From positions 418 through 64,417 of the forward strand of contig QCGX01000007.1 in the NCBI GenBank assembly GCA_003278125.1: DNA of 64,000 bases, read 5' to 3'. Below, in pieces: positions 30,502 through 64,000 of the stretch. The stretch's first letter is position 1; the number at the start of each line of letters is the position of its first letter. The DNA is from Pelagibacteraceae bacterium AG-390-C22. Lineage in GTDB: Bacteria > Pseudomonadota > Alphaproteobacteria > Pelagibacterales > Pelagibacteraceae. The position numbers and the translations under genes are program-made. Below the pieces are notes generated by a model that was not told the DNA's origin, did not search any database, and worked only from the letters and a program-made list of their open reading frames with translations.

Positions 30502-30503
30502 AA

Positions 30504-31757: not shown

Positions 31758-31766
31758 AAATAAAAA

Positions 31767-31789
31767 GGGCGGTTAGTTAATAACCGCCC
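31767..31789 (-). terminator. Intra-operon Rho-independent terminator/attenuator downstream of the binding-protein gene
   Basis: GGGCGGTTA / TAACCGCCC 9 bp stem with a 5 nt loop. On the minus strand it is followed by TTTTTATTT. It lies between the SBP stop (31826) and the permease start (31757). Confidence 0.6.
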
Positions 31790-31825
31790 CTAATATAATA
31801 TATCATCAAAGTCTTTAAAAACTAA

Positions 31826-32944: not shown

Positions 32945-33063
32945 TTATTCCCCTCCGTTTAAACGTTTATTATTCTTTTATTACAACAATTAACAAAAAT
33001 TAAGTCAACCTCTGATTTGTGCTAATTCTTGTTTAAAATTAAGATTTTTTGATTGAATCAATC

Positions 33064-34158
33064 TCAGATTGATTTTGGATCTAAAGCTCTAGCGTCATGG
33101 CTGTTCCAGCCAACATTAATATCATTACCTGGTTTTATATCCATTCTCGCAGAGCTGTTAGGAACTTTTAAAATGAATTCTCTGTTGCCCAACAAATTTA
33201 ATCTAACTCTTGCGTGATCTCCGTGATAAATAACTTCTTCTATTTTTCCCTTATGTTTGTTATCCATTTTTTCATCAGGATCAATAATCGCTCTTTCAGG
33301 TCTTAAAGAAACTTTTGTTTTTTCTCCTTTTGTTTTGACTCTTATAGGATTAGAAATTATTTCAGTCCCAGTATCTAATTTAACTTTACATTTTCCTCCA
33401 GAGATATCTGTGACTTGTCCGGAAAACGTATTGTTCTCACCAATAAATTCTGCAACAAATGAGTTTACAGGTTCTTCATATAATTTATCTGGGCTTGATA
33501 ATTGTTGCACTTTTCCATCATTAAAAACTGCAATTCTACTCGACATAGTAAGAGCTTCGCTTTGATCGTGAGTAACATAAACTACTGTTACGCCAATATT
33601 TTCATGAATGTGTTTAATTTCATACTGCATACTTTCTCTTAAATTTTTATCTAAAGCTCCTAACGGTTCATCCATTAAAACTAATTGAGGATCAAATACT
33701 AGAGATCTTGCAACAGCGACTCTTTGTTGTTGTCCTCCTGATAGTTGATTGGGCATTCTTTTTTCAAATCCAGATAAAGAAACCATAGATAAAGCTTTAT
33801 CAACTTTTTTATCAATATCATCTTTTGAAAGTTTTCTAACTTTTAAAGGAAAAGCTAAATTTTCATAAACTGTTAGATGAGGAAACAAAGCGTAATTTTG
33901 AAAAACCATTCCTATCCCTCTTTTGTGTGGAGGAATTCTAGAAATAGGTTTTGAGTCTAAATAAATTTCACCATTAGTAGGCGTTTCAAAACCTGCTAAC
34001 ATCATTAGGCAAGTTGTTTTTCCTGAACCAGATGGCCCCAACATTGTAATAAATTCGCCTTCATTAATGTCAAGATTCAGGTCTTTAACGACTAAAACTT
34101 TACCGTCATAACTTTTGTCTACCTTATCAAATTTTACAAAACTTTTTGAAGACGTCAT
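33064..34158 (-). CDS. ABC transporter ATP-binding protein (PotA-like, with a C-terminal TOBE-type domain)
   Basis: Walker A GPSGSGKTT, signature LSGGQQQR, Walker B LVLMDEP. Confidence 0.92.
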   Translation of the reverse strand: MTSSKSFVKFDKVDKSYDGKVLVVKDLNLDINEGEFITMLGPSGSGKTTCLMMLAGFETPTNGEIYLDSKPISRIPPHKRGIGMVFQNYALFPHLTVYENLAFPLKVRKLSKDDIDKKVDKALSMVSLSGFEKRMPNQLSGGQQQRVAVARSLVFDPQLVLMDEPLGALDKNLRESMQYEIKHIHENIGVTVVYVTHDQSEALTMSSRIAVFNDGKVQQLSSPDKLYEEPVNSFVAEFIGENNTFSGQVTDISGGKCKVKLDTGTEIISNPIRVKTKGEKTKVSLRPERAIIDPDEKMDNKHKGKIEEVIYHGDHARVRLNLLGNREFILKVPNSSARMDIKPGNDINVGWNSHDARALDPKSI

Positions 34159-49620: not shown

Positions 49621-50544
49621 CTTCTTTTTCACTTCTTTCATTACCGTATCAGCATTTAAATCAACTAAATTTTTTACAGTTATTGCTTTAAAATTTGAAC
49701 TTTCAATACTTACTTTTTTTGCAGAAGTATGGCTTCCAAAAAGAACTAAGCCTTTTTTTTTAAGATGTGAGGCTATGTGTGCTGGACCTGTATCATTGGC
49801 GATAATAAATTTTGCATCATTTATTAATGAGATTAACATTTTTATACTGATAGACTCTCCGTTATCCATGACTACTTTTGCATTTAATTCATTAGCTTCT
49901 TCAAACTCATCCGGACCTGGAGCAACTAAAATTGAATAATTATTTTTATATTCCCTTCTTATTTTTGAAATTAAGTCTTTAAAAAAAGGCCATTTTTTAT
50001 TTTGATGTTTTTTTGAACAAAATGGAAAAATTAAGATATAGTCTCTGTTCGTATACTGATCAGTCAATTTTGATAGATCTTGATTGGCCCATTCTAAATC
50101 AATATTTTTTACGTATTTAGTGGGTATATTGCTTTTATTTAATTGTAATTCCATTCTATCTAGTACTGGATAATTGTCGAAATCTTTCTTGCTTTGTCCT
50201 GGTTCTAAAGTGTCTATAGATGAAGACCATTCTGCTTTACTTAAAATAAAATTTTTATAAAATTTTGTTCGTCTAGAATTTTGTAAATCAAAAACTTTGC
50301 TAAAATTATATTTAGACAATAGTTTTTTTAATTTATATAAAAAAAATAAATTCCAGCGTGGCAATCTTTTATCAGTAATTACTCCATCAATATAAGGACA
50401 TTCTGACATAAATATTGAATAAGGCGCTGATGTTAACAAGAATACTTTTCTATTCATGTAAAATTCTTTAATATCTTTAATAGCCCCATTAGCTTGTATT
50501 AAATCTCCAAGAGAACCATGTTTAATTATTAATATATTTGACAT
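49612..50544 (-). CDS. Glycosyltransferase family 9 (heptosyltransferase-like)
   Basis: ILIIKHGSLGDLIQ at the N-terminus and NDTGPAHIAS...LFG near the C-terminus. Paralogous in architecture to 3865..4818. Confidence 0.8.
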   Translation of the reverse strand: MSNILIIKHGSLGDLIQANGAIKDIKEFYMNRKVFLLTSAPYSIFMSECPYIDGVITDKRLPRWNLFFLYKLKKLLSKYNFSKVFDLQNSRRTKFYKNFILSKAEWSSSIDTLEPGQSKKDFDNYPVLDRMELQLNKSNIPTKYVKNIDLEWANQDLSKLTDQYTNRDYILIFPFCSKKHQNKKWPFFKDLISKIRREYKNNYSILVAPGPDEFEEANELNAKVVMDNGESISIKMLISLINDAKFIIANDTGPAHIASHLKKKGLVLFGSHTSAKKVSIESSNFKAITVKNLVDLNADTVMKEVKKKLN

Positions 50545-50594
50545 TATTTAATCTGCGTATATTTATTATCCTAGTATAGTCAAAAAACATTAAT

Positions 50595-50990
50595 ATGAAT
50601 ACTAAATTAGACAAAATATTGGCAGAAATTTCAGCGGGAGAATTAATAGACAAGATAACTATCTTGGAAATAAAAAAAGTAAAGATTATAAATAATGATA
50701 AATTAATAGAAATTGAAAAAGAATTATTTTCTTTAAATGAGACGATGAAAAAATTTATTCCCGATCATGCTAAAATTTCAAAATTTAAAGATAATCTCAA
50801 ACAGATTAATTTAAAACTTTGGGATATTGAAGATGCCAAAAGATCTGCTGAAAAAAACAATGAATTTGGAAAAGAATTTATCGAACTAGCTAGAAACGTT
50901 TATAAATTTAATGATGAAAGAGCTAAAATTAAATTAGCCATCAATAACGCTCTTGGGTCTAATATTAAAGAAGTTAAATCTTACGAATAA
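50595..50990 (+). CDS. Small hypothetical cytoplasmic protein
   Basis: 131 aa, helical and charged, with no recognisable motif. Sits between envelope GT genes. Confidence 0.45.
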   Translation: MNTKLDKILAEISAGELIDKITILEIKKVKIINNDKLIEIEKELFSLNETMKKFIPDHAKISKFKDNLKQINLKLWDIEDAKRSAEKNNEFGKEFIELARNVYKFNDERAKIKLAINNALGSNIKEVKSYE

Positions 50991-51788
50991 CTAATCTTCT
51001 TTTAAGCTTGGAATAATAGATCTTAATTTTTTAGGTAAACTTGGGTCAATTGATACTGTAATAACACCTTCCTTTTTATTTAATGATTTTAAAATTTTTC
51101 CATCTGGAGAGACAATTAATGAATTTCCATATGTTTTCCTTCCATTATAATGTTTTCCAGCCTGAGCTGGCGCAAAGATATAGCTAAAGTTTTCTATAGC
51201 TCTAGCTTTAAGCAAACTATGCCAATGTCTTTTGCCAGTTGTTTCAGTAAATGCTGAAGGAACTGATAAAAATATTGATCCTTGTTTTGATAATCTTCGA
51301 TATAAATTTGGAAATCTTAAATCATAACAAATAGTTAAACCTATTTTACCCCAAGGCAGTTTGAAAGATTTTATTTTTTTGCCAGCTGAATAAGTTTTAG
51401 ATTCAAAATATCTTTCTTTTTTACTTAAGATAACATCATACATGTGAATCTTATCATAGTAGCATCTGATTTTTCCATTCTTATCAATCAAAACAGATCT
51501 GTTTACTAGCTTATTTTTTGAAACTTTTATTGTTAAAGAACCAACTAAGATCCATTTTTTATATTTTTTTGCTAATTTTTTTATTCCTTTTAGATAAATA
51601 TCCTTATTCATTGAGGTGCAAATTTTCAATAATTTTTTTTTATTTAATAAAAATAAAGAAGAAATTTCAGGAGTTAAAATAAAATCTGTTTTGTGCTTTA
51701 CAGCTTTCAAAATTAATCGCTTTGTACATTTTAAATTATATTCAATATTATTATTTGAACGTAGTTGGATACATGAAACTTTAAACAT
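50991..51788 (-). CDS. Carbon-nitrogen hydrolase (nitrilase superfamily; Nit/omega-amidase-like)
   Basis: Glu (TPE), Lys (YDKIHMYD) and Cys (TICYDLRFP) catalytic-triad contexts. Confidence 0.85.
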   Translation of the reverse strand: MFKVSCIQLRSNNNIEYNLKCTKRLILKAVKHKTDFILTPEISSLFLLNKKKLLKICTSMNKDIYLKGIKKLAKKYKKWILVGSLTIKVSKNKLVNRSVLIDKNGKIRCYYDKIHMYDVILSKKERYFESKTYSAGKKIKSFKLPWGKIGLTICYDLRFPNLYRRLSKQGSIFLSVPSAFTETTGKRHWHSLLKARAIENFSYIFAPAQAGKHYNGRKTYGNSLIVSPDGKILKSLNKKEGVITVSIDPSLPKKLRSIIPSLKED

Positions 51789-51852
51789 ATTAATATAATT
51801 TAACTATTTGTTGTAATATGCAAGATTTAATTGTATTAAATTATTATTCATT

Positions 51853-52728
51853 ATGAACGGCAATAAATCCATAACTTTGGTCTTTGGCGCATATTTTAGT
51901 CATAAGCATATATATAGAATTTGTAAAAATATTAACAAAAAATTTAAGATAATTGTTGTAGAAAATTCTTTAGATAAAAAATTCAAAAAAGATTTAGAAA
52001 AAAAATATAAAAATACAAAAGTAATAATTCCAAAAGAAAATGTTGGACTTGCTAAAAGTTTTAACATTGGAATTAAAAATTCAAAAACTAAGTATGTTTA
52101 TCTAAATTGTCCAGATATGGCTATTTCCAACAAATCTTTAAATGAACTTATTGATTGCGCAGAAAAACTAAAAAATTTTTGTATTTTGGCTCCAAATTAT
52201 AAAGATACCTCTAATTTCAATAATTATGTTGGAAATGACTATGTTTTAAAGAAAACACCATCAAAAATTTTAAAATATCGCCTAAAGAAAGTAGATTTCA
52301 TAGATAATAGTTTTTTTATGTTAACAAAAAATGCAAAAAAATACTTATTTGATGAAAAATACTTTCTATATTCGGAAACAATGGATTTTTGTTTTAAATT
52401 AAAAAAATTTAATGAAAAAAATTATGTTTCAGATAAAATAAGATTTAAACACTACGTATCTGATTCAGTTGATAATAAATATTCTTTATTATCAAAATTA
52501 ACTAGAGCCTGGCATTATAATTGGTCAAAATTTTATTATTACAAAAAAAATTATAATTATTTCTTTGCTTTAAAAAAGATTATTCCAAATATTATTAAAT
52601 CAATTAAGAAAATAATCTTTGGTTTAATTACATTTAATAAAGAAAATACAATGTTTGGATTAGTTGAACTTTATGGAATTATTTGCTCTATTTTAACTTT
52701 AAAATCTTTTTATAGACCAAAAATGTAA
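51853..52728 (+). CDS. Glycosyltransferase family 2 with a C-terminal membrane-associated tail
   Basis: IVVENS..., NVGLAKSFNIGI, NCPDM (DxD-like). Paralogue of 62549..63412, sharing the WH(Y/W)NWSKFY block. Confidence 0.75.
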   Translation: MNGNKSITLVFGAYFSHKHIYRICKNINKKFKIIVVENSLDKKFKKDLEKKYKNTKVIIPKENVGLAKSFNIGIKNSKTKYVYLNCPDMAISNKSLNELIDCAEKLKNFCILAPNYKDTSNFNNYVGNDYVLKKTPSKILKYRLKKVDFIDNSFFMLTKNAKKYLFDEKYFLYSETMDFCFKLKKFNEKNYVSDKIRFKHYVSDSVDNKYSLLSKLTRAWHYNWSKFYYYKKNYNYFFALKKIIPNIIKSIKKIIFGLITFNKENTMFGLVELYGIICSILTLKSFYRPKM

Positions 52729-52739
52729 AAATTCTGGGA

Positions 52740-53417
52740 TTAATTTGTACGCATTTTTTTTTCACTAAATTTAATGAAATTATGTATTAAAAAGGTCAAA
52801 AATAGATAAATTCCTCCAGCAACAATAAAAACTTCTACAGGTTTAAAAGTAGTGGAAATTATATATTTTGCTACTCCTGTTAAATCCATTAAGGTAACCG
52901 TGCTTGCTAACGAAGTGCCTTTTAACATTAGAATTATTTCATTTCCATAAGCGGGCAAGGACTGTCTGATAGCTATAGGTACCTGAATTTTATAAAATAT
53001 TATCTTACTTGAAATCCCTAGGCTTTTTCCAGCTTCTATATAGCCAGGCTTAATTGTTTGAAAAGCTGATCTTAAAATTTCAGAGGTATAGGCTCCAGTA
53101 TTAAGAGAAAATGCTATGATAGCACACCAATACGGCTCCTTTAAAATAACCCATAAAAAAGTTGTTCTTAAATATTCAATTTGTCCTAATCCAAAATAAA
53201 TAATAAATATTTGAACCAAAAGTGGTGTTCCTCTAAATACATAAGAAAAACCATAAGAAAAATTACTAACAAACTTATTTTTACTTAATCTCATGATAGC
53301 AAAAATTAAACCAATGATTAGACCAAAAACTAGCGATAAGGATAAAAGTTTTAAAGTTGTCAAAGTAGCACTTAATAACTTTGGTAAACTATCAATCATT
53401 AAATTTAGATCCATCAA
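52740..53417 (-). CDS. Polar amino-acid ABC transporter permease (HisM-like)
   Basis: His/Glu/Gln/Arg/opine permease family. EAA loop IEAGKSLGISSKIIFYKIQVP. Confidence 0.88.
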   Translation of the reverse strand: MMDLNLMIDSLPKLLSATLTTLKLLSLSLVFGLIIGLIFAIMRLSKNKFVSNFSYGFSYVFRGTPLLVQIFIIYFGLGQIEYLRTTFLWVILKEPYWCAIIAFSLNTGAYTSEILRSAFQTIKPGYIEAGKSLGISSKIIFYKIQVPIAIRQSLPAYGNEIILMLKGTSLASTVTLMDLTGVAKYIISTTFKPVEVFIVAGGIYLFLTFLIHNFIKFSEKKMRTN

Positions 53418-54106
53418 AAACCTCTACTGTAATTTTTTTCTAATTTATTAAGTATTTTCATACTCAGAAAAGTTAAAATTAAATATAAAAGCGCAGCAAA
53501 AGAATAAAAAAATAAAGGATCTCTTGTAGATCCTGCTGCAATATAAGATTGTCTCATTATTTCAACTAGTCCAGTAACTGAAATAAGAGAGGTGTCTTTC
53601 AACGTAATCTGCCAAACATTACTTAAGTTTGGTATCGCTAATCTCAACATTTGAGGAATTATAACTTTAAAAAAATAAATATATTTTTTAAATCCTAAAG
53701 CTTTACTGGCTTCGAATTGACCTTGATCTATTGATTGAATCGCTCCTCTAAAGACCTCCGTGGAATAAGCTCCAGAAATTATTCCAATTGCAAATGAACC
53801 AGTAATAAAAGCATTAATTTCTATATATTCATTGTACCCAAATATGCTAGCAACAAACATAACGGCACCGCTACCTCCAAAAAAAAACAAATAGATTACT
53901 AATAATTCAGGAACGCCTCTAATAACTGTAGTGTATGAATTTGCAATAAAGTTAAATAATTTATTATTTGATAATTTTAAGGGAGTAAAAATTATTGAAA
54001 ATAATATTCCTATAAACATAGCTGTTATTGAAACAGCTATTGTCATTAAAAATGCTGTAAATAATTCGTCACCCCAACCTTTTGAACCAAAATAAAGAAG
54101 TTCCAT
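53414..54106 (-). CDS. Polar amino-acid ABC transporter permease (HisQ-like)
   Basis: EAA loop FEASKALGFKKYIYFFKVIIP. ATGA overlap with the downstream permease. Confidence 0.88.
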   Translation of the reverse strand: MELLYFGSKGWGDELFTAFLMTIAVSITAMFIGILFSIIFTPLKLSNNKLFNFIANSYTTVIRGVPELLVIYLFFFGGSGAVMFVASIFGYNEYIEINAFITGSFAIGIISGAYSTEVFRGAIQSIDQGQFEASKALGFKKYIYFFKVIIPQMLRLAIPNLSNVWQITLKDTSLISVTGLVEIMRQSYIAAGSTRDPLFFYSFAALLYLILTFLSMKILNKLEKNYSRGF

Positions 54107-54114
54107 AAAGAAAA

Positions 54115-54135
54115 GGCGGTTATTTTATAACCGCC
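54115..54135 (-). terminator. Intra-operon Rho-independent terminator/attenuator downstream of the binding-protein gene
   Basis: GGCGGTTAT / ATAACCGCC 9 bp stem with a 3 nt loop. On the minus strand it is followed by TTTTCTTT. It lies between the SBP stop (54151) and the permease start (54106). Confidence 0.6.
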
Positions 54136-54150
54136 ATTTCAAAACATTAA

Positions 54151-55005
54151 CTACATAGAGGCGTCAAAGCCAAAATGTTTGATAGCTAGTTCGCTAATTA
54201 TTCCATTTTTTCTAGCGGTATTAATAGCTCTATTAAAATCTTTTAATAGTTTTGCGTCTCTTTTGCCAACAGTGCTAGAGTTGTCACCTTTTCTTATTCC
54301 AATTCCAACCCCATTACCAAAAGCACCTCCAGAAAAAGTAGGTCCAACAAGAACTACAGGCTTTTTAGATTTAGCTGCATAGTCTGTAAAAGCAACTGCT
54401 GCGGCTAGTGCAGCATCAATTCTTCCTGCTGCTAAGTCTAAATTTACCTCATCCTGAGTTTTATATTTTCTTACAGTCACATTTCCAACATCGCCTGACT
54501 CTAAAAAGTTTTGGTGAATTGTTCCTGTTTGAACCCCAATAGTTTTGCCAGCTAAAGCTTTGGTCAGTTGATCTAAAGTTTTTTTAGCTGAGTTCTTGTT
54601 AGATAAACTAAGAGATTCTACTGTTTGTAAATTTTCAAGACTTGAACCTTTCATTACAGCTAGAGATGCTACTTCGTCAGCATATCCTTGTGAAAAATTA
54701 ATTGTTTTTAATCTTTCTTCAGTAATAGACATTCCAGCCATGATTAAATCGAATTTTCTCATTAATAATGCTGGTATCATTCCATCCCAGTCCTGCTCCA
54801 CTATAGTACATTCATGCTTTAAAATAGCACAAAGTTCTTTCGCTAAATCTACTTCAAATCCAATTAAGTTTCCTGAAGAATCTTTGGCGTTCCATGGTGG
54901 GTAAGCTCCCTCTGTACCAATCCTAACTTTGTCAGAATACGCATTTCCAACTAATAGAAAAGATATAGTAACAAAAGAGATAAATAGTTTTTGTAATTTA
55001 CTCAT
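54151..55005 (-). CDS. Periplasmic polar amino-acid/opine binding protein (SBP family 3, LAO/HisJ/OccT-like)
   Basis: Signal peptide, then RIGTEGAYPPWN, GFEVDL, DGMIPAL and DLIMAGMSIT. Confidence 0.9.
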   Translation of the reverse strand: MSKLQKLFISFVTISFLLVGNAYSDKVRIGTEGAYPPWNAKDSSGNLIGFEVDLAKELCAILKHECTIVEQDWDGMIPALLMRKFDLIMAGMSITEERLKTINFSQGYADEVASLAVMKGSSLENLQTVESLSLSNKNSAKKTLDQLTKALAGKTIGVQTGTIHQNFLESGDVGNVTVRKYKTQDEVNLDLAAGRIDAALAAAVAFTDYAAKSKKPVVLVGPTFSGGAFGNGVGIGIRKGDNSSTVGKRDAKLLKDFNRAINTARKNGIISELAIKHFGFDASM

Positions 55006-55082
55006 ATGTCCCCCTTTTTTTTTACTATTGTAAATAAAAAGAAAAGATTTACTAGAGATTAATTAATCAATTAGATCTGAGG

Positions 55083-56123
55083 TTATTTCATGATCGAAGA
55101 GGCAAAATTCCAATTACAGTCAAAACTTGGTATATAAGCACCTGAAACTTTTACGTTGCCAAAACTTTTATCTAGCACTTTACACCAATTTTCTACCTGC
55201 TTTGGTTTCTTGTCTTTGCTACCTACCTGAGCGGTAATAATCCCACCTTTTTTTAGTATTCTCTTAAGACCCTTCATATTCTTTTTGGCTAGATCAATAC
55301 AATACTGATCATCATTTAAATCTACAAAAATTTTATCATATTTAGAGTCTTCTATTGATTTAATGCTCTCAAAAGCATCTCCCCAGAAAGTTTTGACTTT
55401 ATTACTTTTCTTAACTTTAGAGCAAACTTTTGGAAGGTGTTTAAAACAAGTTTCTACAATTTCTGGGTCTAGTTCATACCAGTCTATATAATTGGCATTA
55501 TTTTCTAGACATTCTCTAGCGACTCCACCATCACCTCCTCCTATAATAGCAACATTCGAATTCTTTTTACTTAAATCATAACTAGATTTAAAAAAGTTAG
55601 AACTATAAATTTTCTCATCTTTTTCAGCCACTTGAATTTCATGGTCAATAAATAGAGCATTTCCAAACTCTTCCAGCTTCATGATCTCAACGAACTGACC
55701 TACTTTTGATGTAAAAGTTTCAAGTACATCATTCACAACGTAAAATTTTTTCTGACCCGGGGTGCTATAAATATCATCATACAGACCCACGCTGCTTCTA
55801 TCGAAACTATTAGTTACAACTCTTTCATGTTGAATTTCTTTTTTTAATATTTTTAAAGCAATCTTAGGATGAACTTTGCCACAAGTAAAAAAGTCAAAAC
55901 TAATAACCTCTCTTTCAGGAAAAGTATGAAAACTAAAATGACTTTCTGCTAGTAAAGCAACTAAAGTAAAACCCTGGGGTTCAAATTTATGAGTGCTAAC
56001 ATTGAGTATTTCAACTTTTGCTGCTTTAGCAATTTTATAGATTACTTTTTCATAGAAAGAAGTAGAATAGTCTTTCTTTACACCTAGAAAATCTATTGTG
56101 ATATGCTCACCTACTTTTATCAT
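55083..56123 (-). CDS. Fusion protein: pyruvoyl S-adenosylmethionine decarboxylase (N-terminal ~110 aa) + aminopropyltransferase/spermidine synthase
   Basis: N-terminus: GEHITIDF, the LLAE|SHFSFHTFPE self-processing site (E60-S61), and FDFFTCG. C-terminus: LFIDHEIQVAEKDEKIY and IIGGGDGGVARE (SAM/dcSAM site). Confidence 0.8.
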   Translation of the reverse strand: MIKVGEHITIDFLGVKKDYSTSFYEKVIYKIAKAAKVEILNVSTHKFEPQGFTLVALLAESHFSFHTFPEREVISFDFFTCGKVHPKIALKILKKEIQHERVVTNSFDRSSVGLYDDIYSTPGQKKFYVVNDVLETFTSKVGQFVEIMKLEEFGNALFIDHEIQVAEKDEKIYSSNFFKSSYDLSKKNSNVAIIGGGDGGVARECLENNANYIDWYELDPEIVETCFKHLPKVCSKVKKSNKVKTFWGDAFESIKSIEDSKYDKIFVDLNDDQYCIDLAKKNMKGLKRILKKGGIITAQVGSKDKKPKQVENWCKVLDKSFGNVKVSGAYIPSFDCNWNFASSIMK

Positions 56124-56129
56124 TAAAAA

Positions 56130-56774
56130 TTACCCTCTTTTATAATTTTTAAACTTACCTAAAACAATTTTCATTTCTTTTTTTGAAAGAATTTTAGGTA
56201 TTCCGATTCTTAGGGCATTTATATATTGATGGCAAATATTTTCTATTTCTTGAGCAAGCTCAAAAGCTTTCACAATATCATCTCCAAAAGCAACTTGACC
56301 GTGATTAGCAATTAAACATGCAGACCTACCTTTAAGAGCTTTAATAATATTTCTTGATAAATTTTTGGTTCCAAACGTAGCGTATTTACTGCATTTTATG
56401 TCTTCTCCGCCAGCAACTGCAACCATATAGTGAAAGGCTGGAATATTTTTTTGATGAGTTGAGATGGCAGTTGCACACGTTGAATGCGCATGAACTATGG
56501 CTTTAGCCTCTTTTTTATTCACATAAATATCTTGATGAAATCTCCATTCAGAGGAAGGTTTTCCTTTTTTTTTATCAAAAACGCCCTTTAAAGAAACAAA
56601 CACAATATCTTTGGTTTTTAAAGATGAATACTTTCTACCTGATGGAGTTATATAGAAACCATCTACGCCCTTTTCTTTAGCTCTTGCTGATATATTTCCT
56701 GATCTTAAGGCAGATAAATTGGTAATGTTTAATTTTTTTGAAAACTTTATAACTTCAGCTTTTAACTTGCTCAC
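56130..56774 (-). CDS. Class II aldolase/adducin-family protein, FucA-like (candidate 5-methylthioribulose-1-phosphate aldolase or dehydratase)
   Basis: GTG start overlapping the upstream TAG by 1 nt. PSSEWRFHQDIY, VHAHS, IPAFHYMVAVAGG, YATFGT and LGKFKNY align block-for-block with E. coli FucA as I remember it. Confidence 0.8.
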   Translation of the reverse strand: MSKLKAEVIKFSKKLNITNLSALRSGNISARAKEKGVDGFYITPSGRKYSSLKTKDIVFVSLKGVFDKKKGKPSSEWRFHQDIYVNKKEAKAIVHAHSTCATAISTHQKNIPAFHYMVAVAGGEDIKCSKYATFGTKNLSRNIIKALKGRSACLIANHGQVAFGDDIVKAFELAQEIENICHQYINALRIGIPKILSKKEMKIVLGKFKNYKRG

Positions 56775-57904
56775 TATAATAAATTATCTTTAAAAAATTT
56801 AATAAATTGAGGCATATAAGCATCTGCGTTATCTCCTCCTATGGTAACTCCTTTTGAAATACATTTTTCTTTTTTCATAATTTTAAAACCAGATTTCCAT
56901 GCTTTTCTTGGATCCTTTTGAGCCATTTCATAAAACGCTTCTACTGAAGGGTAAACTTTGTGTTTATTTACCATCCACTCTACCCATATCGGATTAGTAA
57001 ATCGACCTTCGTTATCAACATAAAAATCAGGACAATCATGAAGAGTCATTGCCATTTTTTCTCTCCAAGGTTTTTTGCCAGCAGCCCAAGCATGATACCA
57101 TCCCTCCTTAATATCAACTTTTACTTTTCCTGGCGGAGATTTAATTCTTTCAGCATGCTCCTTACAAAACTTGGCTAAAGTGTAATCATCTGCGCCACCA
57201 TGCACTACAAGCATTGTTGTATTAGATGTTAATTCTGGTTCTGCAAAAAACCCCGCCATCCTACATTCTGCTGCTTCTGGAAGAATTGCATCAAAACCTT
57301 TTGTGCCTCCAAGAAACTTGGATGTAAGTTTAACGTCTGCTAAGAAAAAAGAATTAGTTCCACCCCTTGAATGACCGGTTGTTCCAAATTTTCCATTAGA
57401 TCTTGAATGAGATTGTAAAACTTTTAAGGCCATTAATGCATCAATTGCTCCATTTATTAGAGGAACTTTAGATTGATCCCTCCATGTAGATCTGGCGCCT
57501 CTTGGACAAAAATTATCTATATACATTACGCCTATACCTTCTTTCAAAAGATTTTGTGTAGAATGATAAACAAAATCATCCCAAACATAATCTCCAGGAC
57601 CACCGCTACTATGGGTGTGGATTACTATTGGAACTTTACCTGTTCCTTTTGGTAATTGAAGATATCCTGTAATTTCAATAGGATTATTTAAATGACCGTC
57701 TATTAAAACTGTTCTTTGATCAAATCCAGTATAAGAATTGAATTTTATTATTTCACCGCCTTCATAACCTTTTAATTTAGCAATGCCTTGAAGCATTGAA
57801 TGTTTTTTCCTACAGTTTTTTTTAGAGTCAAAATTTGGAGATGAATGAGCTAATAAGCTAGTTGAAAATAAAACTGAAAATATTATTAATAGTATTTTTC
57901 TCAT
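56774..57904 (-). CDS. Secreted alpha/beta-hydrolase-fold protein (dienelactone hydrolase / PAF-acetylhydrolase-like)
   Basis: Start moved to ATG 57904 (MRKILLIIFSVLFSTSLLAHS signal peptide). Nucleophile elbow GHSRGG, then VVHGGADD and WYHAW. Confidence 0.6.
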   Translation of the reverse strand: MRKILLIIFSVLFSTSLLAHSSPNFDSKKNCRKKHSMLQGIAKLKGYEGGEIIKFNSYTGFDQRTVLIDGHLNNPIEITGYLQLPKGTGKVPIVIHTHSSGGPGDYVWDDFVYHSTQNLLKEGIGVMYIDNFCPRGARSTWRDQSKVPLINGAIDALMALKVLQSHSRSNGKFGTTGHSRGGTNSFFLADVKLTSKFLGGTKGFDAILPEAAECRMAGFFAEPELTSNTTMLVVHGGADDYTLAKFCKEHAERIKSPPGKVKVDIKEGWYHAWAAGKKPWREKMAMTLHDCPDFYVDNEGRFTNPIWVEWMVNKHKVYPSVEAFYEMAQKDPRKAWKSGFKIMKKEKCISKGVTIGGDNADAYMPQFIKFFKDNLL

Positions 57905-57915
57905 TAAAATATTAT

Positions 57916-59118
57916 TTATAATATATGATCTTTCATAAAAAGTGAAAAATTTTTTTTGATATAATCTAAATCTTTTTTGTTGAGTCCATGATGGCATCCT
58001 ATCAAAACACCGTTACGCATTATATTATTGCTATTTGACTCTGCATTTTTAACTTTTTTGTAAAGTCTTTTTTTCATTATGGGCTGTCTTAATATATTTC
58101 CTGTGAAGATAGTTCTTGTTTGAATTCCTTTTTTTTCTAAAAAAATTTGTAATTTTTGTCTGTTTAATTTTACTCCATTTTTTATGATAATTGGATATGC
58201 TAACCATGCGGTGATAAGGCCTTTTTGTTGGGAAGGTAACTCAAAATAATTAGGAAAGTTTGAAAAAAAATTTTTTAAATTAACAAAATTACTATTTCTC
58301 TTTTTTATACTTTTTGGAAGTTTTTTTAATTGTTCTAATGCGAAAGCTGCAGATATTTCTGATGGTAAAAAATTATATCCCATATCTGAGAATATATATT
58401 TTCCGTCATATGGTATGCCGTCAACTTTTATGTTGAACCTCTTATTTATACCTTCAGACTCATTAAATATTGCCGATGACCTACCCCATCCTCTAAGAAG
58501 TTTTGCTCTTTCATAAGTTTTTTTATCATTAAAACAAACCATACCACCAAATCCAGCTCCTGTTATTATATGTGAAGCATACATACTGTTAGTAGTGATG
58601 TCCGAATATTTTCCAAGGTTTTTATTGTGAACCCGATATCCAATAGTATCAGCAGAGTCTTCGATTAGTTTTATGTTTTTCTTTTTCGCTATTTGAAAAA
58701 TATGTTTCCAATTAGGTACATTTCCTAATAAGTTTGGAACCATTATAGCTTTCGTTTTTTTATTAATTGCGTTTTTAATTTGATCAATTTTTGCAACAAA
58801 TGAATTACTTTCAACATCAATAAAATGAGGTGTTAAACCCAATTGATAAATTGGTGCAACAGTTGTTGAAAAAGTTAAAGTTGGAGTTATAACCTCATCT
58901 CCTTTTTTAAGATTTAATGATGCAAGAGCTAATAAATTAGCCGACGATCCTGAGTTAACCATCAAACCATATTTTTTCCCGAACAATTTAGAAATTTTTT
59001 TTTCTAATTCCTTTACTAAAGGACCGTCTATAAGCGTTAAAGACTTACTTTTTAGTACAGAAAGTGATGCATTAATTTCTTTTTTGTCGTATATGGCTTT
59101 ACCGTAATATATTTTCAT
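57916..59118 (-). CDS. DegT/DnrJ/EryC1 fold PLP/PMP enzyme of the RfbH(E1)/ColD sugar 3-dehydratase type
   Basis: VNSGSSANLLAL, GDEVITP, IEDSADTIG. The SMYASHIIT block has His183 (codon 58570-58572) where aminotransferases carry the Schiff-base Lys. LLRGWGRSS also present. Confidence 0.75.
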   Translation of the reverse strand: MKIYYGKAIYDKKEINASLSVLKSKSLTLIDGPLVKELEKKISKLFGKKYGLMVNSGSSANLLALASLNLKKGDEVITPTLTFSTTVAPIYQLGLTPHFIDVESNSFVAKIDQIKNAINKKTKAIMVPNLLGNVPNWKHIFQIAKKKNIKLIEDSADTIGYRVHNKNLGKYSDITTNSMYASHIITGAGFGGMVCFNDKKTYERAKLLRGWGRSSAIFNESEGINKRFNIKVDGIPYDGKYIFSDMGYNFLPSEISAAFALEQLKKLPKSIKKRNSNFVNLKNFFSNFPNYFELPSQQKGLITAWLAYPIIIKNGVKLNRQKLQIFLEKKGIQTRTIFTGNILRQPIMKKRLYKKVKNAESNSNNIMRNGVLIGCHHGLNKKDLDYIKKNFSLFMKDHIL

Positions 59119-60185
59119 TTAAATATTTTTCTCAAACCTTTTTCAGATGCTTCGCAAATTCCTTTTTCTGTGATTAAACCAGTAACATATTTTGCTGGGG
59201 TGATGTCAAATGCTAAATTTAAAGCTTTGCTTTTTTCTGGATAGATTCTTACTGTTGCGACATTATTATTTTCATCAACTCCTTCTACATGGGATAGTTC
59301 TTCAGAGTTTCTTTCCTCTATAGGAATTTTTTTAAAATCTTTGATGCTCCAGTCTATAGTCGAGCTTGGAAGTGCTACGTAAAAAGGAACATTGTTATCT
59401 TTCGCAGCTAAAGCCTTTAAATATGTTCCAATTTTATTTGCTACATCTCCTGTCGATAAAGTTCTGTCAGTTCCTACAATGCATAAGTCGACTTCACCTC
59501 TTTGCATTAAAATTCCTCCTGCATTGTCAGTAATAATTGTATTTGGTATCCCTTCTTCATTTAACTCATAAGAAGTTAGATTGGCACCTTGATTTCTTGG
59601 TCTTGTTTCATCCACCCAAACATGAACTTTAATTCCTTTTTGATGAGCATGATAAATAGGTGAAGTAGCTGTTCCCCAATCAATTGTTGCAAGCCAACCA
59701 GCGTTGCAATGGGTTAAAATATTTACTGTATCTTTTTTTTTACTGGCTATTTCTTGAATTATCTTTAAGCCATTTTCACCTATGCTTTTACAAAATGCAA
59801 CGTCCTCTTCTACAATCGCCTTAGCTTCCTCTAAAGCTACTTTTAAAATTTCATCACTATTTATGCCAGATAATTTTTTTATCATTCTATCTACTGCCCA
59901 TTTTAAATTAATTGCCGTAGGTCTAGAAGATATTAAATCTTCACTGGATTTTTTTAAAAAAGATTGGTCATTCTTTTCAATAATAGATAAAACTATCCCA
60001 TAAGCAGCCGTAGCCCCAATTAAAGGAGCTCCTCTTACTTCCATTGTTTTAATTGCGTTAATTGAATCTTTAACTGTTTTTAAATCTTTAATAATAAATT
60101 GATGAGGCAGCTTTGTTTGATCTATTATCTTTACTGTATTATTTTCAAACCAAATTGTTCTATAGGCTTTACCGTTAATTTGCAT
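59115..60185 (-). CDS. mtnA: S-methyl-5-thioribose-1-phosphate isomerase
   Basis: eIF-2B-like family: IIDQTKLPH, MEVRGAPLIGATAAYG, CNAG, ETRPRNQG, VGTDR. I prefer ATG 60185 (MQINGKAYRTIWFENN) over 60212. Confidence 0.9.
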   Translation of the reverse strand: MQINGKAYRTIWFENNTVKIIDQTKLPHQFIIKDLKTVKDSINAIKTMEVRGAPLIGATAAYGIVLSIIEKNDQSFLKKSSEDLISSRPTAINLKWAVDRMIKKLSGINSDEILKVALEEAKAIVEEDVAFCKSIGENGLKIIQEIASKKKDTVNILTHCNAGWLATIDWGTATSPIYHAHQKGIKVHVWVDETRPRNQGANLTSYELNEEGIPNTIITDNAGGILMQRGEVDLCIVGTDRTLSTGDVANKIGTYLKALAAKDNNVPFYVALPSSTIDWSIKDFKKIPIEERNSEELSHVEGVDENNNVATVRIYPEKSKALNLAFDITPAKYVTGLITEKGICEASEKGLRKIFK

Positions 60186-61062
60186 TATTTTTAATAAGTG
60201 CTCTTCCTGCAATATGTTTTAATTTTTTTATAGTTTTTTTGGATCTTAATTTTGGATCTGTAATGATAGCGGTATCTAAACAATTATTTGCAGGATCTTT
60301 ATCTATTGAAAAATCTTTAAAAGTTTTGATAATTTCTTTAATCATGTTTTGTGCATTTGAAGCATTTTTTTGCAATGTTTGAACTACCATTGCTACATCA
60401 ACTTCATCATGATCTGGATGCCAACAATCATAATCAGTTACCATAGCGACTGTGCAATATCTAATTTCTGCTTCTCTGGCTAATTTTGCTTCAGGCATAT
60501 TTGTCATTCCAATCACGTCTGAATTCCATGATCTATATAAATTAGACTCTGCTAAAGTAGAAAATTGAGGACCTTCCATTACAACATAAGTTCCACCAAT
60601 TTGATGATTAATATTCAATTTTTTCAATGCTACCTCGCAACATTGAGATAGACCAGGACTAGTTGGTTTAGCCATTGAAACATGAGCTACAATTTCTTCA
60701 TCAAAAAAAGTTTTTACTCTTGAAAAAGTTCTATCAATGAATTGATCAACAATTACAAATTTTCCCGGATTAAGATCTTCCTTTAAAGAACCAACTGCTG
60801 AGACAGAAATAATATCAGTTACTCCTAATTGTTTCATAGCGTCTATATTTGCTCTAAAATTTATTTTAGTAGGATTGATTTTATGTCCTCTTGAATGTCG
60901 AGGGATAAAACAAATTTCTTCTTTTCCTAATTTTGCTATTAGAATTTCATCGGATGGTTTTCCCCAAGGAGTATTAATTTTTTTCCATTTAGTCTTTTCA
61001 AAGCCTTCCATTTTATAAAGACCACTACCACCAATTATCCCAAGTTTTCTTTTTTTCATCAT
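60175..61062 (-). CDS. mtnP: S-methyl-5'-thioadenosine phosphorylase
   Basis: LGIIGGSG, FIPRHSRGH, GPQFST and VIGMTNMPEAKLAREAE, typical of MTAP-type PNP. Confidence 0.9.
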   Translation of the reverse strand: MMKKRKLGIIGGSGLYKMEGFEKTKWKKINTPWGKPSDEILIAKLGKEEICFIPRHSRGHKINPTKINFRANIDAMKQLGVTDIISVSAVGSLKEDLNPGKFVIVDQFIDRTFSRVKTFFDEEIVAHVSMAKPTSPGLSQCCEVALKKLNINHQIGGTYVVMEGPQFSTLAESNLYRSWNSDVIGMTNMPEAKLAREAEIRYCTVAMVTDYDCWHPDHDEVDVAMVVQTLQKNASNAQNMIKEIIKTFKDFSIDKDPANNCLDTAIITDPKLRSKKTIKKLKHIAGRALIKNNAN

Positions 61063-61102
61063 TTAATTATTAATGCTTTTTTGTTAGAACTTGAAGCTAA
61101 AT

Positions 61103-61630
61103 ATGGATTTAAAAAAATATATCAGATCTATTCCAGACTACCCTAAAAAAGGCATTTTATTCCGAGATATTACTACTCTAATTAAAAATCCTGAGGCCTT
61201 TAAATATACAAATGACAAGATAATAGAATTATCAAAAAAATTAGAATTTGATAAAGTTTCAGCTATAGAGTCTAGAGGTTTTATTTTTGCATCTACAGTG
61301 TCCTACATTTTAAACAAACCTTTTATTTTACTAAGAAAGAAAAACAAACTTCCATCAGAAACTCATTCGGTTGATTTTAAACTCGAATATGGTGAGGCAA
61401 CTATTGAAGTGCATAAAGACTCTATTTCTAAAGGAGAAAAAATCCTTGTAATAGATGACTTGATCGCTACTGGCGGAACGGCTGAAGCTGCTGGGAAATT
61501 AATAGAAATATCTGGCGGAATAGTTGCTGGATTTATTTTTGTAATTAACCTATTTGACTTAGAGGGCAATAACCTCTTAAAAAAAAAGGGATACAAAGCT
61601 GAAAGTTTAATTGAATTTCCTGGTCATTAA
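61103..61630 (+). CDS. apt: Adenine phosphoribosyltransferase
   Basis: IPDYPKKGILFRDIT and the PRPP loop VIDDLIATGGTA. The track's alternative TTG start is at 61091. Confidence 0.92.
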   Translation: MDLKKYIRSIPDYPKKGILFRDITTLIKNPEAFKYTNDKIIELSKKLEFDKVSAIESRGFIFASTVSYILNKPFILLRKKNKLPSETHSVDFKLEYGEATIEVHKDSISKGEKILVIDDLIATGGTAEAAGKLIEISGGIVAGFIFVINLFDLEGNNLLKKKGYKAESLIEFPGH

Positions 61631-62517
61631 GAATTCTTTTTTAAAAACTCTTCAATATAACTCTTTAAGCTTATTTTACCGTAATATCTATAAATTTTAT
61701 TAGATAAATTTTTTTTGACCAATGCAGAAGCATATCTTTCTCCGTCTCTAGAAGGCAAATATTTAATTTTTGTTTTAAACATTTTAGCTACTTCTAGAAC
61801 TGAATAAGCTTTTGTATTTGCTATAATATAGTGTCTGTTTAATTTTTTTTTCCAGGCTTGATAAACTATTTTAATAGTATCTTCAATATGAGTAAATCTT
61901 CTTGTTTGTGTTCCAGGTCTTACAACAGGTAGAGGTTTTTTTCTTAAATAATGATCTTCAAAGATACCTATAACCGTCGACATAAATCCCTTGGAAATTT
62001 GATTGGGTCCATACACATTATAAAAATATATAATCTCATATTTTAGATTAAAATGTCGTTTAAAATTTTCTAATTGTTCAAGATTTTTTGCTTTACTAAA
62101 AGCATAAGGAGATAAATTTTTATCTTTCCCTTTATTTCCTAATGAAGCTGATGTAGCTGAATAAATAAGTTTAATATTGTTCTTTAAACAAAAATTAAAT
62201 ACTGCGTTTGAACCAGTAAAGTTAGATTCGATACACTCATTCATTTTAAGAAAGCTCTGATAAATTCTCGCAAATTCGCCAAAATGGAAAACTGAATGAA
62301 TATACTTAGGATTTTTTACTAAACTAATAATATCTTTTGTATGACCATTTATATATTTAACTCTATTGCTTTTTATATGATTTTTTTTTGCTCCTGAAGA
62401 GTAGTTATCTAAACTAATAATGCTAAATTTTGTTTTTTTAAGTAAAAAATTAATTAGATTTGATCCTACAAATCCTGCTCCACCCGTGACTAAAATTTTT
62501 TTTTTACTATTTAACAT
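61627..62517 (-). CDS. NAD-dependent nucleotide-sugar epimerase/dehydratase (short extended SDR)
   Basis: VTGGAGFVGSNL Rossmann motif and the YAFSK catalytic YxxxK. Confidence 0.85.
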   Translation of the reverse strand: MLNSKKKILVTGGAGFVGSNLINFLLKKTKFSIISLDNYSSGAKKNHIKSNRVKYINGHTKDIISLVKNPKYIHSVFHFGEFARIYQSFLKMNECIESNFTGSNAVFNFCLKNNIKLIYSATSASLGNKGKDKNLSPYAFSKAKNLEQLENFKRHFNLKYEIIYFYNVYGPNQISKGFMSTVIGIFEDHYLRKKPLPVVRPGTQTRRFTHIEDTIKIVYQAWKKKLNRHYIIANTKAYSVLEVAKMFKTKIKYLPSRDGERYASALVKKNLSNKIYRYYGKISLKSYIEEFLKKNS

Positions 62518-62548
62518 TAGAACTAAATATATCTTTGAAATAATTAAA

Positions 62549-63412
62549 TCAATCTAATCTTGGTCTAAACCACGAGCTTTTATTTAATGCTGCATTCATA
62601 AATCCTGATGCTCTACAATAATAAATTTTACTTTTAAATTTATTATTAATAATTAAAAAAAATAGACTTTTTAAAATTGATTTAAAAAATATGAAGAATC
62701 CAGAAACAAATGCTTTTACAAAACCATAATGCTTTTTTCTAAAATAAAACTTTGACCAATTCCAATGCCAGTTTCTAGAAAATTCTAATTCATTTAAATA
62801 TTTTTTGTCAACTGCTTTTGCTCCGAGATGTGAAATTAAAGAATAACTGTAAATATAAATCTTTTTATTATCTTTTTTAGTTCTCAAGCAAAGATCATCA
62901 TTTTCTAAATACATAAATATTTTTTCATCAAAAAAATTATCATTAAATTGGTGTTTATCTAAAATCATTGCATAGCCGTCAATTTGATCAACTTCAAATA
63001 AACCCTTTTTTTTATTTGTTAATTCTTTTTGCACTTTGTAGTTTGGATAATCTTTGTTGTCACTTAGTGGACTTAAAATGGCAAATTCTAGATTTTTAGA
63101 TATTTCAAAAATTTGATTTAAAGTATTTGGCTTTAAGACAGTATCTGGATTTAAAATCATTACATATCTAGTTTTTGATTTTTCTATTCCAAAATTATTT
63201 CCAGATCCCATACCTAAATTTTTACCTGTAAGATAGCACTCAATATTTTTGTACTTTTCTTTCAAATAATTTGTAAACTCACGATTAGAAGAGTTTTCTA
63301 CTATTATCTTCTTGATATCTGGATCAATTGATCTTAAACATCCATCAATAATTTTTTGACTTTTGATTGTTACTATAATTATTGTTAAATTTTCTTTAGT
63401 TATTTGCATCAA
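62549..63412 (-). CDS. Glycosyltransferase family 2 with a C-terminal membrane-associated tail
   Basis: IIIVTIKS, IIVENSSN, NLGMGSGNNFGI, LNPDT. Paralogue of 51853..52728. Confidence 0.8.
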   Translation of the reverse strand: MMQITKENLTIIIVTIKSQKIIDGCLRSIDPDIKKIIVENSSNREFTNYLKEKYKNIECYLTGKNLGMGSGNNFGIEKSKTRYVMILNPDTVLKPNTLNQIFEISKNLEFAILSPLSDNKDYPNYKVQKELTNKKKGLFEVDQIDGYAMILDKHQFNDNFFDEKIFMYLENDDLCLRTKKDNKKIYIYSYSLISHLGAKAVDKKYLNELEFSRNWHWNWSKFYFRKKHYGFVKAFVSGFFIFFKSILKSLFFLIINNKFKSKIYYCRASGFMNAALNKSSWFRPRLD

Positions 63413-63474
63413 AAAAATGCCTTCATTATGATAGAAAGTATACTTCCAAACATAAATAATATAAATAGTAGCAA

Positions 63475-64000
63475 ATGAAAAGGTTTATCGTAACAGGGGG
63501 GTATGGTTTTATTGGTAGTAACTTAATAAAACTATTGTTAAAAAAAAAATTTAAAGTCCTTAATATTGATAAACTATCATACTCAGCTCAAAAATATAAT
63601 TTAAAGGATATTAAAAGTAAAAACTACTTTTTCAAAAAGACTGATATTAATAATAAAAAAGAAATTTTAAAAATTCTAAAAAGATATAAACCCCACGGAA
63701 TTTTTAATTTAGCAGCAGATACTCATGTGGATAGATCAATAGACGATTCCTCTAACTTTATTAAAAATAATATTCTAGGTGTTTATAATTTACTAGAAGC
63801 TATTATAAATTATAAAAAAAAAGTTAGGCTAGTTCATATTTCTACTGATGAAGTTTATGGAGATATTTCAGGTTCAAAAAGATCTGATGAGAGTTTTCCA
63901 TATATTCCGAGCTCTCCTTATTCTGCCTCAAAAGCTTCTTCTGATCATTTGGTTAATGCTTATATTAGAACACATAAAATTGATGCTGTGATATCAAATT
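63475..64000 (+). CDS. rfbB: dTDP-glucose 4,6-dehydratase, 3' end outside the window (not in the ORF track because it has no stop)
   Basis: My translation from ATG 63475: MKRFIVTGGYGFIGSNLIKLL...NLAADTHVDRSI...HISTDEVYGD...YSASKASSDHLV. The frame is open to nt 64000. Confidence 0.88.
   Translation, partial: MKRFIVTGGYGFIGSNLIKLLLKKKFKVLNIDKLSYSAQKYNLKDIKSKNYFFKKTDINNKKEILKILKRYKPHGIFNLAADTHVDRSIDDSSNFIKNNILGVYNLLEAIINYKKKVRLVHISTDEVYGDISGSKRSDESFPYIPSSPYSASKASSDHLVNAYIRTHKIDAVISN

Follow-up and report, generated by a model that had tools for sequence, protein, structure and literature searches.

A conserved SAR11 operon likely couples polyamine synthesis to by-product disposal through a dihydroxyacetone phosphate shunt

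What becomes of the 5'-methylthioadenosine (MTA) that a polyamine-forming bacterium releases with every aminopropyl transfer? The question is raised by a gene cluster on the minus strand, at 55083-61062, of the DNA analysed here (contig QCGX01000007.1 of Pelagibacteraceae bacterium AG-390-C22; "the window" denotes the whole stretch of 64 kb). A fused S-adenosylmethionine decarboxylase (AdoMetDC)-aminopropyltransferase gene is found there together with mtnP, mtnA and the gene of a class II aldolase. We consider it likely that this operon ties the making of polyamines to the removal of their by-product by way of a dihydroxyacetone phosphate (DHAP) shunt, and that the two further genes inserted in this strain are not steps of the pathway.

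The window consists of low-GC DNA (about 22-35%) and its source is SAR11 (Pelagibacteraceae): the aldolase is 87-94% identical to its counterparts in 80 SAR11 single-cell, metagenome-assembled and isolate genomes, Ca. P. ubique HIMB058 among them, and the window proteins recur as exact copies on a 65,181-bp NCBI contig. The list of open reading frames (ORFs) and the junction sequences agree with the first-pass annotation of this DNA, which had described six packed minus-strand genes and a divergent apt (here 28-40 bp away). The six ORFs are co-directional and joined by 1-11-nt overlaps or 6-11-nt spacers:

61091 (TTG) or 61103 (ATG, likely start) to 61630, plus strand: apt, adenine phosphoribosyltransferase (TIGR01090)
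61063..61090: divergent apt/mtnP intergenic region, 28 bp, or 40 bp with the apt start at 61103
60175..61062, minus strand: mtnP, 5'-methylthioadenosine phosphorylase (NF006492, TIGR01694, Pfam PNP_UDP_1)
59115..60185, minus strand: mtnA, 5-methylthioribose-1-phosphate isomerase, from an ATG (the ORF extends up to a TTG at 60212; TIGR00512)
57916..59118, minus strand: ColD/E1-like DegT-family protein (Pfam DegT, 260 bits)
56774..57904, minus strand: secreted alpha/beta-fold serine hydrolase (signal peptide, fold model)
56130..56774, minus strand: FucA-like class II aldolase, 214 aa, GTG start (Pfam Aldolase_II, PF00596, 160 bits)
55083..56123, minus strand: AdoMetDC-aminopropyltransferase fusion, 346 aa (Pfam AdoMet_dc, Spermine_synt_N and Spermine_synth)

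mtnA and mtnP overlap by 11 nt, the ColD-like gene and mtnA by an ATGA; 11 nt separate the ColD-like gene from the hydrolase gene, the GTG start of the aldolase overlaps the hydrolase stop by 1 nt, and a 6-nt spacer leads to the fusion gene. The hydrolase start (MRKILL..., opening a signal peptide) is the one called on the identical public contig.

A four-gene core conserved across SAR11

Window proteins were mapped by tblastn onto 80 other Pelagibacteraceae loci, and the denominators given are the loci that cover the site in question. The fusion gene directly follows the aldolase in 79/79 loci, mtnA lies upstream of the aldolase in 78/78 and mtnP upstream of mtnA in 76/76, while apt is divergent and at most 100 bp from mtnP in 74 of 75. 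Nothing intervenes between mtnA and the aldolase in 56 of the 78 loci, and in these insert-free genomes the mtnA stop overlaps the GTG start of the aldolase (GTGA). The conserved unit is one of four genes, mtnP-mtnA-aldolase-fusion (mtnP-mtnA-ald-speDE), with the divergent apt, and the arrangement is not due to chance. All six genes and apt had at first been read as one unit; across the 80 SAR11 loci this stands for the four core genes with apt, whereas the ColD-like gene and the hydrolase gene are rare insertions.

The fusion is the MTA producer. A class 1b AdoMetDC (residues 1-110) is followed by an aminopropyltransferase of divergent type (residues about 120-346), with Pfam placing AdoMet_dc at 7-109 and Spermine_synth at 171-339 of the single ORF. 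The AdoMetDC domain lies above the TIGR03330 cut-off (94.9 vs 75.65), and the translation keeps the E60-S61 self-processing site, H66 and C81. Neofunctionalisation of SpeD homologues to arginine or ornithine decarboxylases (ADC/ODC) is known (PMC10407285), but the Pelagibacter fusion is a bona fide AdoMetDC (PMC11107197). When the fusions of HTCC1062 and HTCC7211 were expressed in E. coli speD/speE mutants, the AdoMetDC domain worked (Li et al. 2024, PMC11107197), and spermidine, spermine and thermospermine were formed, as was norspermidine from diaminopropane (PMC11107197). The activity of the Pelagibacter fusion is thus already known from experiment and not new here; the window protein, which shares the N-terminal class 1b AdoMetDC and C-terminal divergent aminopropyltransferase of the assayed proteins (WP_011282223, WP_008544956; PMC11107197), is taken as their ortholog on architecture and taxon. 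Since the fusion makes tetra-amines, up to three MTA would be released for each of them. The same window also holds a PotABCD-like polyamine ABC transporter (29647-34158, minus strand), composed of an SBP_bac_8 binding protein, a PotB/PotH-like permease with a long N-terminal extension and an ATPase with a TOBE domain.

Families were assigned with Pfam and NCBIfam profiles under the curated NCBIfam cut-offs. MtnP passes two equivalog cut-offs (NF006492, 442.6 vs 437; TIGR01694, 317 vs 275), MtnA passes TIGR00512 (426 bits vs 279) and Apt passes TIGR01090 (199.5 bits vs 185.85). The SAR11 MtnA has its top match in the plasmid collection, at 58% identity, in the MtnA of a DHAP-shunt operon of extraintestinal pathogenic E. 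coli (ExPEC). It is 55-58% identical to MtnA proteins of non-canonical clusters in general (the E. coli shunt and a rhizobial cluster of mtnK, mtnA, transketolase-like and RuBisCO-like protein genes), as opposed to only 38% for the MtnA of a Klebsiella mtnK/mtnA locus, which we take to be of the canonical-pathway type and within 7 kb of which no mtnB, mtnC or mtnD was found. The rhizobial cluster, on a Pararhizobium plasmid (L084:3733-9164), has mtnK-mtnA, then a split pair resembling 1-deoxyxylulose-5-phosphate synthase/transketolase and the RuBisCO-like protein, without an aldolase; its MtnA accounts for a 58% identity to the SAR11 protein.

From these assignments a route may be proposed. 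The SpeD-SpeE fusion would decarboxylate S-adenosylmethionine and move aminopropyl groups, releasing one MTA per transfer, as shown for the HTCC1062 and HTCC7211 fusions. On family membership, MtnP would convert MTA and phosphate into adenine and 5-methylthioribose 1-phosphate, and Apt would return the adenine to AMP. MtnA would isomerise the sugar phosphate to 5-methylthioribulose 1-phosphate (MTRu-1-P), which the FucA-like aldolase, judged by its family, catalytic residues and context, would cleave into DHAP and 2-(methylthio)acetaldehyde. FucA cleaves D-ribulose 1-phosphate, so substrates of the D-ribulose-1-phosphate type fit a FucA-like stereochemistry. By analogy, MtnP probably accepts 5'-deoxyadenosine as well, and 5'-deoxyadenosine from radical-SAM enzymes would probably be cleared to DHAP and acetaldehyde, with 5-deoxyribulose 1-phosphate as the substrate of the aldolase, as in the published shunts.

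The same three activities stand side by side in the shunts of Rhodospirillum rubrum and Rhodopseudomonas palustris (MtnP-MtnA-Ald2) and of ExPEC E. coli (MtnN with MtnK-MtnA-Ald2), and entry through a phosphorylase, MtnP, is common to SAR11 and R. rubrum. Relative to these systems the SAR11 operon adds the MTA producer and a divergent apt; it has no kinase, transporter or MtnR-type regulator nearby and no linked gene for the fate of the aldehyde (alcohol dehydrogenase, methylthio-alkane reductase), and its aldolase has only 38% identity to E. coli Ald2 and is not grouped with that enzyme. Genes that handle the aldehyde were found neither in the operon nor elsewhere in the window. In ExPEC the order is mtnK-mtnA-ald2-transporter (PMC12632272). 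That mtnP, mtnA and a class II aldolase make up the published gene set of the shunt, as first proposed for this DNA, is upheld by that study and by the E. coli operon itself (PMC12632272; locus L082). A further parallel is DrdK-DrdI-DrdA of Bacillus thuringiensis (PDB 6BTD; PMC6079011), where an isomerase and a FucA-like aldolase likewise lead to DHAP and an aldehyde. The SAR11 aldolase matches DrdA (6BTD) at E = 1.9e-35 and 35% identity; the Bacillus route is entered by a kinase acting on the free sugar, that of SAR11 by a phosphorylase, and for SAR11 the link to radical-SAM 5'-deoxyadenosine is only inferred.

MTA could also come from outside. SAR11 might scavenge dissolved MTA and 5'-deoxynucleosides from phytoplankton for their adenine, their carbon as DHAP and perhaps their sulfur, a role compatible with the coupling to polyamine synthesis and, as the chief explanation of the locus, unlikely. 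An E. coli that possesses these three activities can grow on MTA and 5'-deoxyadenosine (PMC10986504), MTA is a measured dissolved metabolite exuded by Prochlorococcus (10.1101/2024.02.09.579562), and apt is tightly linked to the core. However, no nucleoside or MTA transporter lies in or beside the conserved core, whereas the E. coli operon has its own sugar transporter, and the core is joined to the internal MTA producer speDE in every one of the 79 loci.

Assignment of the aldolase

On profile scores and retained residues the third enzyme appears to be a FucA-like aldolase and not an MtnB dehydratase, consistent with the initial judgement that it does not resemble MtnB. FucA-type NCBIfam models score 175-195 bits and a haloarchaeal ribulose-1-phosphate aldolase model 166 bits, compared to 47-67 bits for four MtnB models with cut-offs of 137-281 (TIGR03328, 67.2 vs 137; NF006672, 59 vs 226; NF005244, 47 vs 281). 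The protein is about 41% identical to E. coli FucA (1FUA) and keeps all of the catalytic, zinc, phosphate and aldehyde-pocket residues checked: N29, T/S43-G44, S71 and S72, which we take to form the phosphate site; E73, presumably catalytic; H92, H94 and H155, the presumed zinc ligands; and Y113, F131, F206 and Y209, which we assume line the aldehyde pocket. Their retention argues that the SAR11 protein is an aldolase rather than a dehydratase. Public names are generic (NCBI, "class II aldolase/adducin family protein"; JGI, "L-fuculose-phosphate aldolase") because no curated equivalog cut-off is reached.

Separating one FucA-like aldolase from another is a different matter. The sequence blocks PSSEWRFH, IPAFHYMVAVAGG and YATFGT are present in the translation, as the first-pass annotation had noted, but their use there as markers of Ald2 fails: they occur alike in the FucA and the Ald2 of E. 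coli and in a Bacillus DrdA-like protein, and the same FucA catalytic residues are also found in Ald2 and the DrdA-like protein. The phylogenetic placement suggested at that stage was carried out and proved uninformative. A neighbour-joining (NJ) tree with 100 bootstraps was built from 50 sequences that included E. coli Ald2, E. coli FucA, the Bacillus DrdA-like protein, Streptococcus pneumoniae FucA, four plasmid homologues and 39 representatives of 50%-identity clusters; the reference loci were the ExPEC DHAP-shunt operon (L082, mtnK-mtnA-ald2-transporter), the E. coli fucA locus (L091, fucPI/fucAO) and a Bacillus kinase-isomerase-aldolase cluster (L085), and the set drew also on a Caballeronia cluster (L090) in which the aldolase follows mtnA and a kinase-sized ORF lies upstream. 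SAR11 aldolases and the representative P0362 form a clade of their own with 97% support. The partner of E. coli Ald2 is the FucA of the same species (58% identity), and that of the Bacillus DrdA-like protein is S. pneumoniae FucA (52% identity). Shunt aldolases have evidently arisen repeatedly from the local FucA-like stock, and because the characterised Ald2 and DrdA each branch beside a local FucA, phylogeny cannot assign the SAR11 protein to Ald2 or FucA. With the characterised shunt aldolases polyphyletic and the deep nodes unsupported, the tree was dropped as a means of telling the two apart.

Gene context, and not motifs or phylogeny, is decisive for the assignment. Among the 50%-identity cluster representatives, five of the seven nearest non-identical relatives adjoin mtnA or mtnP:

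P0362, 66% identity to the SAR11 aldolase: mtnA-ald-speDE
P0366, 50% identity: mtnA-ald, then a short-chain dehydrogenase/reductase (SDR) and adenosine deaminase (loci L103/L104)
P0368, 47% identity: mtnA-ald
P0374, 47% identity: mtnP-ald-mtnA
P0397, 45% identity: mtnP-ald
P0364 and P0415: no mtn genes seen, on short contigs

The SDR beside the P0366 aldolase, in another lineage, is a candidate for reducing the aldehyde, and no equivalent of it is linked to the operon in SAR11. The top-scoring cluster representative, P0361 (512 aa), has two complete FucA-like aldolase domains in tandem.

Several points weigh against a DHAP shunt in SAR11 and have to be set beside this context. The FucA-type NCBIfam matches all fall under the curated cut-offs (TIGR01086, 175 vs 400; NF005302, 195 vs 264). 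The protein shares 38-41% identity with both the Ald2 and the FucA of E. coli; FucA, Ald2 and DrdA are inseparable by sequence, and the deeper placement of the SAR11 clade in the NJ tree is without bootstrap support. The closest plasmid-borne homologues (41-48%) sit in sugar ABC-transporter/FGGY-kinase clusters and not with mtn genes, on account of which plasmid homologues were rejected as contextual support for the shunt. A preprint ("Pelagibacter, resolved", 2026) scores "methionine salvage" as at least 98% complete in 135 Pelagibacter genomes and does not state the genes counted; there is no conflict if it counted only steps of the metK/speD/speE/mtaP/mtnA type. Co-transcription of the six genes, lastly, is suggested by their overlaps and by the terminator predictions. 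On the minus strand within 55083-61062 these show no intrinsic terminator, and promoter-like sites are no commoner than in shuffled sequence (39 found vs 44 expected, hence no enrichment), so that co-transcription remains an inference. Rfam families at E <= 1, riboswitches included, are absent from positions 50000-64000. The features that follow the operon on its 3' side are:

54151-55005: basic-amino-acid ABC substrate-binding gene, between the fusion gene and the hairpin
54115..54135, minus strand: first strong terminator-like hairpin 3' of the operon, with a 9-bp stem of 5 GC pairs, then a T run

Could the aldolase be an ordinary sugar-phosphate enzyme for L-fuculose 1-phosphate or D-ribulose 1-phosphate that has come to lie beside mtn genes by chance? 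Its highest similarity among profile models and PDB entries is to FucA, it scores 166 bits with the NCBIfam ribulose-1-phosphate aldolase, and its plasmid homologues have the sugar-cluster context noted above. Yet no fucI, fucK, fucP or fucO and no sugar kinase or isomerase lies nearby in the window; in place of the fucPIK/fucO setting of the E. coli gene (compare L091), the SAR11 gene has the mtn/speDE operon. Its position between mtnA and speDE is invariant in 78-79 genomes, with overlapping start and stop codons, and the nearest relatives in other marine lineages are also placed beside mtnA or mtnP. We regard the ordinary-enzyme explanation as improbable.

Canonical methionine salvage, with the aldolase-like protein as MtnB and mtnC/mtnD elsewhere in the genome, can draw on the shared Pfam family (PF00596) and on the completeness score of the preprint, but is very hard to reconcile with the low MtnB scores (47-67 bits against 137-281, compared to up to 195 for FucA-type models), with the retention of Y113, F131, F206 and Y209, the presumed aldehyde-pocket residues, and with the lack of any MtnC, MtnD, MtnW, MtnX or MtnE in the 64-kb window. 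In the window, no homologue of mtnB, mtnC, mtnD, mtnW, mtnX or mtnE was detected in a screen of almost every ORF of 110 aa or longer, and the sole HAD protein (23753-24415) scores as a phosphoglycolate phosphatase; the early observation that mtnC, mtnW/X and mtnD are absent from the window was thereby confirmed. SAR11 thus has the MtnP and MtnA steps in common with canonical salvage (MtnB-MtnC-MtnD or MtnW/X, then MtnE), and differs from it in a third enzyme unlike MtnB and in the downstream genes missing from the window. Its sulfur would not go back into methionine but be released as 2-(methylthio)acetaldehyde.

Genes inserted at the core junctions

The junctions on both sides of mtnA are insertion hot spots. 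Between mtnA and the aldolase, the 376-aa hydrolase gene is found in about 12 of 78 loci, the gene of a different, 308-aa secreted alpha/beta hydrolase in 12, and the ColD-like gene in a single one of the 78 (L039, 96% identical). Between mtnP and mtnA, 40 of the 80 loci have a 148-aa tautomerase-family gene. Three loci (L031, L060 and L063) have cassettes of 4-4.7 kb wedged between mtnP and mtnA that carry genes for GDP-mannose 4,6-dehydratase, a sugar C-methyltransferase, a cupin and a 299-aa unknown protein, with a DegT homologue in L060. No insertion-element signature was seen at the junctions, which show conserved stop/start overlaps only.

Behind the fusion gene the situation is similarly variable. 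A nitrilase-superfamily amidase gene begins 3 nt after the fusion gene in 28 loci (L004 and 27 others). In the window it is displaced to 50991-51788 (minus strand), set apart from the fusion gene by an inserted amino-acid ABC transporter (52740-55005) and a glycosyltransferase (51853-52728). The best NCBIfam match of the amidase is deaminated-glutathione amidase (206 bits), compared to 86 bits for N-carbamoylputrescine amidase. Glycosyltransferase and epimerase genes occur on both flanks of the operon region. The variable junctions together with these glycan genes place the operon on the margin of a flexible region for cell-surface glycans, and it becomes an example of how flexible genes are wedged, frame-coupled, between the genes of a core operon that borders a glycan island.

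The DegT-family protein has E1 and ColD as its best solved relatives, the ColD structures matching at E about 1e-56. A histidine replaces the lysine that would form the Schiff base with pyridoxal 5'-phosphate (SMYASH aligned on SFYPAH of E1, 3BCX), and the protein fails the RfbH/E1 equivalog NF011936 (317.5 vs 423). The CYCAPGCDNTC region of E1, presumably its Fe-S site, aligns to a cysteine-free stretch, and this absence makes the protein ColD-like rather than an E1. By its sequence it is probably a nucleotide-sugar 3-dehydratase dependent on pyridoxamine 5'-phosphate (PMP), encoded by a deoxysugar gene of glycan synthesis outside MTA metabolism. Its 90%-identity cluster has 9 members; such cluster sizes are not comparable across genes, so they were rejected as a measure of core versus accessory status and serve here only to show that the ColD-like gene is rare.

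The hydrolase has no Pfam or NCBIfam match at default thresholds (DLH and Peptidase_S15 appear at E about 0.02 only). Its AlphaFold model (pLDDT 90.3) returned generic lipase, feruloyl esterase and dienelactone hydrolase matches in a Foldseek search of the PDB, and the homologues share an invariant triad of S179 (in GHSRGG), D239 and H271 along with four invariant cysteines. A specific function was sought through sequence searches, homologues, model and Foldseek and had to be given up, with a generic esterase/lipase/dienelactone-hydrolase fold as the outcome. Homologues at 64% and 51% identity are located in unrelated contexts; the former, in another SAR11 genome (L092:5249-7559), lies between an SDR gene and folB with overlaps of 4 nt and 1 nt, much as the hydrolase gene is lodged in the mtn operon here. 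It would seem that members of this family relocate from one operon junction to another.

The ColD-like gene and the hydrolase gene most likely belong to the neighbouring pool of cell-surface glycan and flexible genes, and in this strain they would borrow the transcription and translational coupling of the operon; that either product acts on MTA derivatives is unlikely. The view that all six genes form one functional unit, with the two enzymes processing the ribose or methylthio moiety, can appeal to their translational coupling inside the operon in this strain and to the PMP chemistry by which ColD-type enzymes dehydrate keto-sugars, but has next to no chance of being right in light of their distribution (1/78 and about 12/78, with 56 loci having the mtnA/aldolase junction empty), a signal peptide and conserved cysteines that point the hydrolase to the periplasm when the pathway is cytoplasmic, divergent hydrolase homologues between SDR and folB genes or elsewhere, and DegT homologues that in related loci accompany GDP-mannose dehydratase and C-methyltransferase genes.

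Fate of the methylthio fragment

SAR11 is unable to reduce sulfate and depends on scarce reduced sulfur. Since the fusion yields tri- and tetra-amines, two or three methionine-derived sulfurs would be lost as MTA for each polyamine molecule. If the DHAP shunt is the only route for MTA, the methionine pool loses this sulfur in the form of 2-(methylthio)acetaldehyde or 2-(methylthio)ethanol, perhaps as a volatile or excreted compound, barring an unknown recovery step. In that case the most abundant marine heterotroph would leak sulfur in quantifiable amounts, or export organosulfur in a new form, and the scoring of mtnP plus mtnA as "methionine salvage" would have to be corrected.

The DHAP shunt is a known bacterial pathway that is apparently undescribed so far for SAR11. 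North et al. 2020 reportedly surveyed the distribution of shunt clusters. Our literature searches found no paper that ties SAR11 or Pelagibacter to the DHAP shunt, or SAR11 to acireductone; an earlier mention may exist. None of the papers found on MTA, methylthioribose, mtn genes or methionine salvage in SAR11 or Pelagibacter describes the pathway in SAR11, and no gene tables were found in the supplements of HTCC1062 omics papers.

SAR11 might not simply discard the methylthio fragment: an undescribed step could recapture it, or the shunt could allow the cells to feed on dissolved phytoplankton MTA as a combined source of adenine, carbon and sulfur. We think this pair of possibilities doubtful; either of them, if true, would connect the metabolism of a polyamine by-product with the need of SAR11 for reduced sulfur. 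A candidate for recapture is the 148-aa tautomerase-superfamily protein (Pfam Tautomerase_3, with Pro-1 in MPTYTVK; for example L003:5565-6011), which is absent from the window. Methanethiol for methionine synthesis could be freed by its action on the enol of 2-(methylthio)acetaldehyde. Its copies between mtnP and mtnA, in the 40 loci counted above, are 62-100% identical. About 1,000 homologues were found; the 120 among the matches listed are all at least 80% identical, short and SAR11-like, and on these matches the protein appears restricted to SAR11.

At another place in the window, cysteinyl-tRNA synthetase appears split into two overlapping minus-strand ORFs (17647-18456 and 18425-18997), with positions 2-169 and 166-300 of Pfam tRNA-synt_1e in separate frames; the split reflects a frameshift, which either truly disrupts the gene or stems from an assembly error.

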